From Escherichia coli (GTDB taxonomy: Bacteria > Pseudomonadota > Gammaproteobacteria > Enterobacterales > Enterobacteriaceae): a stretch of DNA of 64,000 bases. The notes beneath the pieces were generated by a model that worked only from the letters and a program-made list of their open reading frames with translations, searched no databases and had not been told where the DNA came from. The stretch is from the NCBI RefSeq assembly GCF_002854065.1, contig NZ_CP024147.1. One strand, written 5' to 3'. The position numbers and the translations under genes were made by a program. Positions 54,945-60,549 of the stretch are shown piece after piece. Numbering within the stretch: the first letter of the stretch is position 1; each line of letters begins with the position of its first letter.

Positions 54945-55472
54945 TTAGAACATCAGCGCCGTACGGCGGCGTTTTTCTGCGCTCAGTTGTTCAAGTTTAT
55001 TACGATCGACACAAATTAGCGCATGAGTCGGGCAAGCCGCCATACACGCCGGGCCGTCTTCACGATGGTTGCACAGGTCGCATTTATTGGCTTCGGCTTT
55101 GTCAGCCCGTACATTCAGACCCGCGCCGCTGTTGCGGATCACCGGACGTACCACCACTTCCATCGCGCCATACGGGCAAGCCACAACGCAGGTTTTGCAA
55201 CCAATGCAACGTTCCTGCATCACATGAACAAACCCTTTATCACGGCTGATAGCACCATTCGGGCAGACGTTAGCGCACGGTGCATCTTCACACTGACGGC
55301 AAACTGTCGCCGTGGAAATGTTCACACCTTTAATGACATGGATACGCGGTAAAAATGTTTCCGGGGTCAGCGATGCACAGTCCTGATTTTCCTGATGAGA
55401 AACCACGCACGCCACTTCACAGGTACGGCAACCAATACATTTACTCGCGTCAGCAATGATGAAACGGTTCAT
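54945..55472 (-). CDS. hydN: Electron transport protein HydN (4Fe-4S ferredoxin-type)
   Basis: Sequence [27 protein letters not shown]... with four CxxCxxCxxxCP clusters. Confidence 0.95.
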
Positions 55473-55621
55473 CAAATTCTCCAGCTATGACAGTTAATGC
55501 GCCGATACATTCACAAATTATGCCAGTTTTTAATTAACTGTTATTTAAGGAAATTAATTTCTGTAATGCAGGAAAAAAAGATGTCATCGACACTAGTGAC
55601 GATGACATGTGATGACAATGT

Positions 55622-56635
55622 TTATCGCGAAAGAGCAATGAGTGAGTCGCGGCAGATCAGTTTTCCGCTGAAGGTTTTCGGCGGTGAGAAATCCCCGCCA
55701 TCGAGCATAAAAATCAGCCGTCCAATAATTTCCTGAATCATCTCAGTCACCGGAATTTTTACGCTGGAGAGCGCCGGAACGATATAGGGGGCAATTGCGA
55801 TATCATCGAATCCGATAACTGACACCTGCTCTGGCACCGCTACGCCGCGCTCGTGTAACGCTTTCATCGCACCTATCGCCATATCGTCGTTACTGGCAAC
55901 TAACGCGCTAAATTTAGCCCCACGTTCGAGCAACGTTTCTACCCCTTCGGCCCCGCTGGCGGGCGTCCATTTACCGTTAGCGATAAGTTTTTCATTGAGC
56001 GCAATACCATGCTGCGCCAGCGCGTCTTTATATCCGGCAAGACGTTCAACGCTGGTGGGGGAATCCATCGAGCCGGTAAGAAAAGCAATCTCCTGATGCC
56101 CGGCGTTTATCAACTCTGCCACGGCGTTAAAGCTGGTCTGTTTATGATCGCACCAGACGCTATGGCTGCTATTTTTGCGCAGGCGGCGATTAAGCACCAT
56201 TATCGGCTGACTGTGCGCGTCAATGATGTCATCGATCTCATCCACACTTAAAAAACGCGGGTAAATCATAATGGCGTCGCAGCGCAAATCCAGCAGATAC
56301 TGAATCGCCTGGCGCTCTTCTTCGGCGCTGTGTTTACCATCTGCCAATAGCAACTGCCGCCCTTTCTCTTCCGCCATTCGCGCGGCATGAAACAGTAATT
56401 CACTAAAATAAATGCCGTGGTAAAGCGTGTTAGTCACTACCAGCCCCAGCGTCTGGGTACTTTTCGCCGACAGATTGCGCGCCAGCAAGTTTGGACGGTA
56501 ACCGCTCTCTTCTACCGCCTGAAACACGCGATCTTTAGTCTCCTGGCTGACGTAGCCATTACCTGAAAGCACGCGGGAAACGGTCGCTTTTGAAACCCCG
56601 GCGCGCTTCGCCACTTCCAGCATCGTCGTCATCAT
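55622..56635 (-). CDS. ascG: LacI/GalR-family repressor of asc operon
   Basis: Sequence M(M)TTMLEVAKRAGVSKATVSRVLSGNGYVS...; exact start (56632 vs 56635) uncertain. Confidence 0.92.
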   Translation of the reverse strand: MMTTMLEVAKRAGVSKATVSRVLSGNGYVSQETKDRVFQAVEESGYRPNLLARNLSAKSTQTLGLVVTNTLYHGIYFSELLFHAARMAEEKGRQLLLADGKHSAEEERQAIQYLLDLRCDAIMIYPRFLSVDEIDDIIDAHSQPIMVLNRRLRKNSSHSVWCDHKQTSFNAVAELINAGHQEIAFLTGSMDSPTSVERLAGYKDALAQHGIALNEKLIANGKWTPASGAEGVETLLERGAKFSALVASNDDMAIGAMKALHERGVAVPEQVSVIGFDDIAIAPYIVPALSSVKIPVTEMIQEIIGRLIFMLDGGDFSPPKTFSGKLICRDSLIALSR

Positions 56636-56718
56636 TTTCATCCCTTTACACGCAATCAACGCAGTGTACTGCACCGTTTACCGATTGTCCTTGCGCAATC
56701 GGCGGGAAAAATATTCAG

Positions 56719-56732
56719 GTGACCGGTTTCAC
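56719..56732. promoter_or_regulatory. Putative AscG operator palindrome 1
   Basis: gtgaccggtttcac, palindromic around ccgg, in the ascG-ascF divergent region. Confidence 0.55.
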
Positions 56733-56792
56733 AAATATAAAAAATGAACAATTAACTCTCTTGCTTATTTGGTTACAACTATTCATGATTTT

Positions 56793-56806
56793 GTGAAACC
56801 GGTTTC
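56793..56806. promoter_or_regulatory. Putative AscG operator palindrome 2
   Basis: gtgaaaccggtttc, second copy of the same palindromic motif 74 bp downstream. Confidence 0.55.
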
Positions 56807-56891
56807 TTAATTCCGTTTCAGCATCGGCATTTTTCCGTCACGTCGACTGATAACAACTACATCTTCCCTACTGATAACAGGATAAAATCCG

Positions 56892-59782
<2,891 letters not shown>

Positions 59783-59896: not shown

Positions 59897-60314
59897 TCAA
59901 AGAAACCATTCAGGCTTAACGCCAAATCGGGCTGAAAGTGCCTTAATGTGGGATATCGTCAGGGATCGTTGTCCAGACAAGATCTGGCTGACCAGGGATT
60001 TAGAACCGATTTCGTTCTTCAAATCCGCATAGTCAGATTATGTTGATCAATCAGCGTACGAAGTAACGCTACGCCAACCGGCATTGCCGCAACGGCTTTG
60101 TCGAACTCTGCAAACTTTTCGTTGTTGTTTTCATATTCTGCAATGCGGCTCGCCAGAAAGTCGATAAGTGGATTGGTGTCATCTTCTTCAATCAATATTC
60201 GACCAGTTCCAGTGCTTCACGATAATCATCTTCTGAGTCACTGCCTCCCAGAAAGGGGACTGCATTGACCAGTTCTCTTGTTGCTTTAACAGCGCGTGCA
60301 GCATTAGCAGTCAT
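59897..60314 (-). pseudogene. HigA-like (HTH-XRE) antitoxin gene remnant with two frameshifts
   Basis: Three reading-frame segments together resemble E. coli HigA: MTANAARAVKATRELVNAVPFLGGSDSEDDYREALELVEY / LIEEDDTNPLIDFLASRIAEYENNNEKFAEFDKAVAAMPVGVALLRTLIDQHNLT / YADLKNEIGSKSLVSQILSGQRSLTISHIKALSARFGVKPEWFL. Confidence 0.6.
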
Positions 60315-60549
60315 TCTTTGTTCTCTCTGTAGTATCGTATCAGACGCCCACTTTTCTAAAATGCCAGGTTTGCTCGGCATCATAAGGCATGGTCAGGAGA
60401 GGTTTCAGCGCCCGCTTTTGCGCATATTCGCTGTCACTCATTGGCAGATATTCGGTAAAGCTGGTGGCCTGTGCAGGCAGCACTAAGCTCAATAAAAAAG
60501 CGCACATCCCTGTTCTGATGTTCAATTCCCTGAATTCCCTAATGAAGAA

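Follow-up and report, generated by a model that had tools for sequence, protein, structure and literature searches.

We analyzed a stretch of 64,000 nucleotides of Escherichia coli DNA (the window), in which the divergent intergenic region between ascG (minus strand) and ascF (plus strand) occupied 259 bp at 56633-56891. This region was 100% identical to that of E. coli strain CUWW06, and the annotation of that identical locus (ascG/ascF/ascB) confirmed the site named in an earlier note, which was made from the sequence alone and had described two copies of a palindrome in the ascG-ascF region as a LacI/GalR-family operator pair. The same region was found in 4698 of 5426 complete E. coli genomes. 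The genes at the locus were as follows.

55622-56632, minus strand: ascG, LacI/GalR-family repressor gene, 336 aa (RefSeq annotation of the identical locus)
56892-58349, plus strand: ascF, PTS cellobiose/arbutin/salicin EIIBC (annotation and NCBIfam)
58358-59782, plus strand: ascB, 6-phospho-beta-glucosidase, GH1 (annotation and NCBIfam/Pfam)

AscF scored 1025.6 bits against the NCBIfam equivalog NF007311 (cut-off 722), and AscB scored 1092 bits against NF007356 and matched the Pfam family Glyco_hydro_1. In AscG, Pfam domains were assigned to residues 3-48 (LacI HTH) and 171-330 (Peripla_BP_3) of the 336 aa; a C-terminal tetramerisation extension (LacI-type tail) was absent, with 6 residues beyond the sugar-binding domain. 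The nearest NCBIfam models of AscG were GalR and GalS, both under cut-off. When the window was compared with K-12 MG1655, 6 of the 259 intergenic positions differed, every one of them outside the two palindromes (sites A and B below), which were identical in K-12 MG1655 (2839351-2839364 and 2839425-2839438). An Rfam scan of 55400-57200 with E-values up to 1 matched no RNA family, thus riboswitches and antiterminator-type elements of described families appeared to be absent from this interval. On the other side of the operon, the gap between ascB and hycI contained a frameshifted helix-turn-helix pseudogene and a small hypothetical ORF at 59897-60508 (RefSeq annotation of the identical genome); in K-12 this gap was just ~160 bp.

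Both strings quoted in the earlier note were present, GTGACCGGTTTCAC at 56719-56732 (site A) and GTGAAACCGGTTTC at 56793-56806 (site B). Their reported separation of 74 bp was correct from start to start, and the distance from dyad centre to dyad centre was 76 bp (central CG at 56724/56725 in site A and 56800/56801 in site B). The description as two copies of one palindrome was justified in full for site B, which had 1 mismatch in 14 to the experimentally defined AscG box TGAAACC-GGTTTCA and fully fitted it. For site A it was only about half right: the site had a perfect right half-site and the CCGG core, but its left arm was short of two A's in comparison with the AscG operator. A repeat search also revealed a direct 9-mer common to both sites (ACCGGTTTC, 56722-30 and 56798-806, spacing 76). 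The features of the intergenic region, some of which are discussed further below, were the following.

56660-56690, minus strand: putative ascG promoter block, with -10 TACACT, -35 aGGACA and a 17-nt spacer
56718-56733, no strand: site A, CRP box gGTGA-CCGGTT-TCACA, centre 56725.5, AscG-type dyad 56724/25
56722-56735 and 56790-56803, no strand: arms ACCGGTTTCACAAA and TTTGTGAAACCGGT of a perfect 14-nt inverted repeat, which brackets the 54-bp core promoter
56761-56766, plus strand: predicted PascF -35 TTGCTT, its TTG column near-invariant in the 80-sequence alignment
56784-56789, plus strand: predicted PascF -10 CATGAT, a conserved hexamer column 17 nt from the -35
56791-56810, no strand: site B, the main AscG operator, which overlaps the predicted start (~-3 to +11) and has its core TGAAACCGGTTTCT at 56794-56807

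In an ungapped search of the window with the consensus TGAAACCGGTTTCA, site B had 1 mismatch and site A had 3, and matches with 3 mismatches occurred at noise level (4 found versus 2.77 expected). Because such a search (up to 3 mismatches) cannot tell site A from noise, we adopted a 20-nt AscG weight matrix that was trained on non-Escherichia orthologous operators only. Among the ~128,000 positions of the 64-kb window, site B ranked first (27.3 bits) and site A second (13.1 bits), followed by a match of 7.5 bits. Thus, just 76 bp separated the top two AscG-like sites of the 64 kb. The 7.5-bit match, located at the start of hydN (55456-55475), was dropped as background.

Based on a scan for the AscG protein in species-representative genomes, we identified 80 loci, all of which had ascF divergent from ascG, in genera that included Escherichia, Citrobacter, Enterobacter, Klebsiella/Raoultella, Kluyvera, Lelliottia, Leclercia, Phytobacter, Aeromonas and Sodalis. 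One locus was left out, in which the ascF match fell short of the start codon, and the remaining 79 were analyzed together with the window as 80 intergenic regions. First, site B was found in all 80 regions with scores of 25-33 bits, in the form TG[A/G]AACCGGTT[T/C]C[C/T/A]. The AscG binding sequence published for PascF is TGAAACCGGTTTCT, which is identical to window 56794-56807 and served as the AscG site in experiments in vivo (PMC8667592, Table S3 and text). The suggestion of a LacI/GalR-family operator pair was therefore borne out for site B, a published AscG operator, but had to be revised for site A, which is primarily a CRP box. Both sites lay beside the repressor gene, in the ascG/ascF spacer.

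Some variation was also observed in and around site B. The last position of the operator, 56807, showed a T/C polymorphism (TTTCT versus TTTCC), and the C form, present in strain L65 and Escherichia sp. E1V33, was that of most other genera; approximately half of the E. coli genomes were one base off the window in the 40-mer around the site. In E. coli 04A19CPO007 (NZ_CM151383.1, 3228-3925), an IS1 element was situated between operator B and the ascF start codon, at about window position 56845. The ascF leader contained a perfect 10-nt direct repeat, ACTGATAACA, at 56846-56855 and 56870-56879 (24 nt apart). Its downstream copy overlapped the conserved ribosome-binding region (GATAACAGGAT), and its upstream copy fell in a stretch that was variable or missing in other genera.

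Second, the position of site A was conserved as a pair of CRP half-sites. The GTGA/TCAC core had no mismatch in 58 of the 80 regions, one in 20 and two in 2. In the 76 regions outside the Escherichia-type group, only these half-sites were kept and the spacer was free (TCGTCA, TCCCAT, TCAAAA, TCATCA, TAAAAA, CGAACA and more), and the column-conservation profile of the 80 regions was 9-5-9-9 / 0-0-1-2 / 9-9-9-9. Conserved half-sites around a free spacer characterize a CRP box and not an AscG operator. A clear second AscG-like site was present only in the four Escherichia-type regions (spacer CCGGTT, 13.1 bits); some Kluyvera regions had a weak one (TCGGTT, 2.0-9.0 bits), and the matrix scan of the 80 regions revealed none above 3.3 bits in the others. 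In the papers cited here, we met no report of an AscG-like core in the CRP box that is limited to Escherichia and, in weaker form, Kluyvera. The CRP boxes of Kluyvera and relatives (L060, L063, L066, L067, L068 and L072; TGTGATCGGTTTCACG) contained an AscG-type right half-site, and judging from the sequence they may be another, weaker case of a CRP box that holds an AscG-like core. The AscG of that Kluyvera lineage was ~75% identical to the E. coli protein.

The sequence of site A, GGTGACCGGTTTCACA, had 1 mismatch in 10 to TGTGA-N6-TCACA and was the sole match with up to one mismatch in the window. Since ~1.8 such matches are expected by chance per 64 kb, the CRP assignment is based on the conservation described above and on a ChIP-seq table: in a CRP ChIP-seq study of ETEC H10407, GGTGACCGGTTTCACA (window 56718-56733) was listed for the ascG/ascF peak, the motif being the authors' computational call inside the peak (PMC4287617). 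In addition, ascF is a known CRP target that was also recovered by genomic SELEX (PMC3105977).

These data also bear on the possibility that the two sites repeat each other by chance and play no part in regulation. Although short palindromes occur frequently and searching with the simple consensus gave noise-level counts, every one of the 80 regions had site B and 78 had the half-sites of site A with no more than one core mismatch, site B has published binding data and site A has ChIP data, and a perfect 14-nt inverted repeat is expected only ~1e-4 times in 259 bp (an estimate from ~3.3e4 position pairs x 4^-14). A chance origin thus seemed practically negligible.

The distance between the CRP centre and the centre of operator B was nearly constant, with 75 bp in 43 regions, 74 in 32, 73 in one and 65 in four. 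The four 65-bp species (Enterobacter sp. ENT03, Escherichia sp. ESNIH1, Pseudescherichia vulneris and Enterobacteriaceae bacterium UBA7338; L030, L033, L042 and L043) had the two sites one helical turn closer, and the missing 10 bp lay between the CRP box and the -35. A consensus scan of 56500-57000 for sigma-70 promoters and terminators found nothing. The promoter part of this default scan came out empty because both predicted PascF hexamers are weak, and the hexamers were hence predicted from cross-genus conservation; in the -10 column, A at position 2 and T at position 6 were shared by 13 of the 14 genera displayed, the exception being Dryocola. On this basis, transcription from PascF would start near 56796-56797, which would place the CRP centre at about -71.5 (-61.5 in the four 65-bp species) and operator B at about -3 to +11. 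PascF would then be a class I CRP-dependent promoter with weak core hexamers at predicted positions. On the opposite strand, GCAGTGTACTGCACCG (56660-56675) together with ATTGTC was near-invariant over all 80 regions, Aeromonas included, and the block at 56660-56690 is probably the ascG promoter. This block also held a short dyad, GCAGT-GT-ACTGC.

It might be argued that site A is solely a CRP box, that its AscG likeness is incidental (GTGA...TCAC resembles TGA...TCA) and that AscG acts through site B alone. Most orthologous promoters indeed have a CRP box and a single operator, and site A as an ungapped 14-mer is at noise level, with 3 mismatches to the AscG consensus. Moreover, in a synthetic promoter AscG repressed strongly from +1 and had almost no effect alone at -61 (PMC8667592). 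However, when all 4096 possible spacers were enumerated with the E. coli CRP half-sites and flanks fixed, CCGGTT obtained the top AscG-matrix score, only two spacers reached 8 bits, and the median was -11.5. Site A was also the second-best AscG-like site in 64 kb (13.1 versus 7.5 bits for the next) and formed the perfect 14-nt inverted repeat with site B, and a previous report that cites Ishida 2009 states that ascFB "has two binding sites" for AscG (PMC3505978). A purely CRP-binding site A is thus very improbable. Site A is chiefly the CRP activator site of the promoter, and in Escherichia it also has an AscG-like core. In E. coli it would most likely be a dual CRP/AscG site, a reading favored over CRP alone because CCGGTT is the best spacer, because the 40-mer around site A was identical in 4546 of 4699 E. 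coli records (the 40-mer between the sites being polymorphic) and because of the two AscG sites in the literature.

Another possibility, raised by the earlier note, was that AscG dimers at A and B associate and loop out the intervening 76 bp with the ascFB promoter, and that the spacing serves this purpose. Geometrically, this is possible: the two sites bracket the core promoter, and the 76-bp dyad spacing lies in a loop-favorable phase, as LacI forms stable loops at 75.5-77.5 bp but unstable ones at 70.5-72.5 bp (PMC3505978). The same study mentions two AscG sites at ascFB, and AscG is closest to GalR and GalS, of which GalR loops without a tetramerisation tail (PMC3505978). On the other hand, repression by LLhA/Q55A, a chimera that joins LacI to the regulatory domain of AscG, changed less than 2-fold with spacing, unlike that by the GalR, GalS and TreR chimeras (PMC3505978); this domain has been tested for looping only there, and the result, being obtained with a chimera, is indicative rather than final. 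AscG has no C-terminal extension past its sugar-binding domain, and alone at -61 of the synthetic promoter it had almost no effect (PMC8667592). Furthermore, the CRP-to-operator distance of 73-75 (or 65) bp was kept in the 76 regions outside the Escherichia-type group, mostly where a second AscG-like site was absent (best other at most 3.3 bits, except in some Kluyvera). When compared with looping pairs of the lac/gal type, asc showed neither signs of tetramer or dimer-dimer contacts nor conservation of the auxiliary operator, and the favorable phase of 76 bp was equally explained by the position of CRP. Since most genomes with the kept spacing have one AscG-like site, the spacing is no evidence for looping, and the 74/76-bp value can be attributed to class I CRP geometry. 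Therefore, the claim that the spacing indicates looping did not hold, and looping itself is unsupported and appeared unlikely.

Instead, it is highly probable that CRP at about -71.5 activates a weak promoter, that AscG at site B occludes the start and that in Escherichia AscG at site A competes with CRP. According to this model, cAMP-CRP would bind site A and recruit RNA polymerase to the poor -35 (TTGCTT) and -10 (CATGAT) hexamers, and an AscG dimer on site B (TGAAACCGGTTTCT, ~-3 to +11) would block the polymerase. In Escherichia, the spacer CCGGTT and the flanking TTCACAA would make up a full AscG half-site and core, such that a second AscG dimer on the CRP box could exclude the activator. 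With AscG on both sites, repression would combine promoter occlusion at B with anti-activation at A; the competition between AscG and CRP at site A is inferred. Ishida, Kori and Ishihama (2009) are reported to have described two AscG sites upstream of ascFB and to have attributed repression to interference both with cAMP-CRP, at a CRP box overlapping one AscG site, and with the binding of RNA polymerase. This agrees with our sequence comparison, and the control region studied here, the AscG/CRP region of the cryptic ascFB operon, has been described before. The AscG genomic SELEX data of Ishida are curated in RegulonDB, and the RegPrecise AscG profile contains 7 sites.

With regard to evolution, the layout of a single operator and a CRP box was kept in Citrobacter, Enterobacter, Klebsiella/Raoultella, Aeromonas and others. 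We speculate, with considerable reservation, that the asc promoter originally carried a single AscG operator apart from its CRP box, and that the change of the Escherichia spacer to CCGGTT put a repressor site on the activator site, which could add to the crypticity of ascFB. If so, a side effect was the perfect 14-nt inverted repeat, which would be able to mediate inversion of the 54-bp core promoter.

In one genome, E. coli TUM1226 (NZ_CP135719.1, 2152067-2152397), the 54 bp between the repeat arms (window 56736-56789) were exactly inverted: compared with K-12, this segment had 1 mismatch as the reverse complement and 44 in direct orientation. The inversion turns the predicted -35/-10 core promoter of PascF toward ascG. 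A junction-specific query detected the inverted state in only 1 of 4698 genomes, and promoter phase variation was rejected on this account. Either the inverted repeat mediated a rare inversion in TUM1226, or the state is an artefact of the assembly.

Little of this is new in substance, as a publication from 2009 already covered the AscG boxes of ascFB and its dependence on CRP, and RegulonDB and RegPrecise contain AscG binding data. Our results correct the reading of the locus in two respects: the upstream "operator" is an activator site that only in Escherichia was most likely turned into a repressor site as well, and the spacing would reflect the class I geometry of CRP rather than looping. 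A lineage-restricted repressor half-site over a CRP box is also a small, testable example of how a catabolic operon may be pushed toward silence.

The asc control region can be compared with several known systems. The AscG operators of ascFB in K-12 (Ishida 2009) represent the same locus with the same site sequences as the window, and nothing material differs. The PtxS operator of Pseudomonas, also of the LacI family, has the same 14-bp consensus palindrome as the AscG box, 5'-TGAAACCGGTTTCA-3', but the repressor, the effector (2-ketogluconate for PtxS) and the regulon are different, and the identity is due to a common LacI-family half-site type rather than a common system. As in E. coli asc, the repressor site is superimposed on the activator site in CytR/CRP anti-activation at deoP2. 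Unlike the case of CytR, we know of no cooperative contact between repressor and CRP at asc, nor is one implied, and competition is the expected relation. The lac O1/O2/O3 and gal OE/OI operators are similar to asc in that two operators of one LacI/GalR-family repressor flank a promoter. In contrast with these pairs, the AscG domain did not confer spacing-dependent repression and AscG has no tetramerisation tail, and most orthologous promoters lack the second asc operator but keep the spacing of the CRP box. With lac (CRP at -61.5, O1 at +11), asc has in common an upstream CRP box, in asc at a predicted class I position (-71.5, or -61.5 in four species), and a LacI-family operator near or over the start; compared with lac O3, the auxiliary AscG site is lineage-restricted and sits on the CRP box itself.
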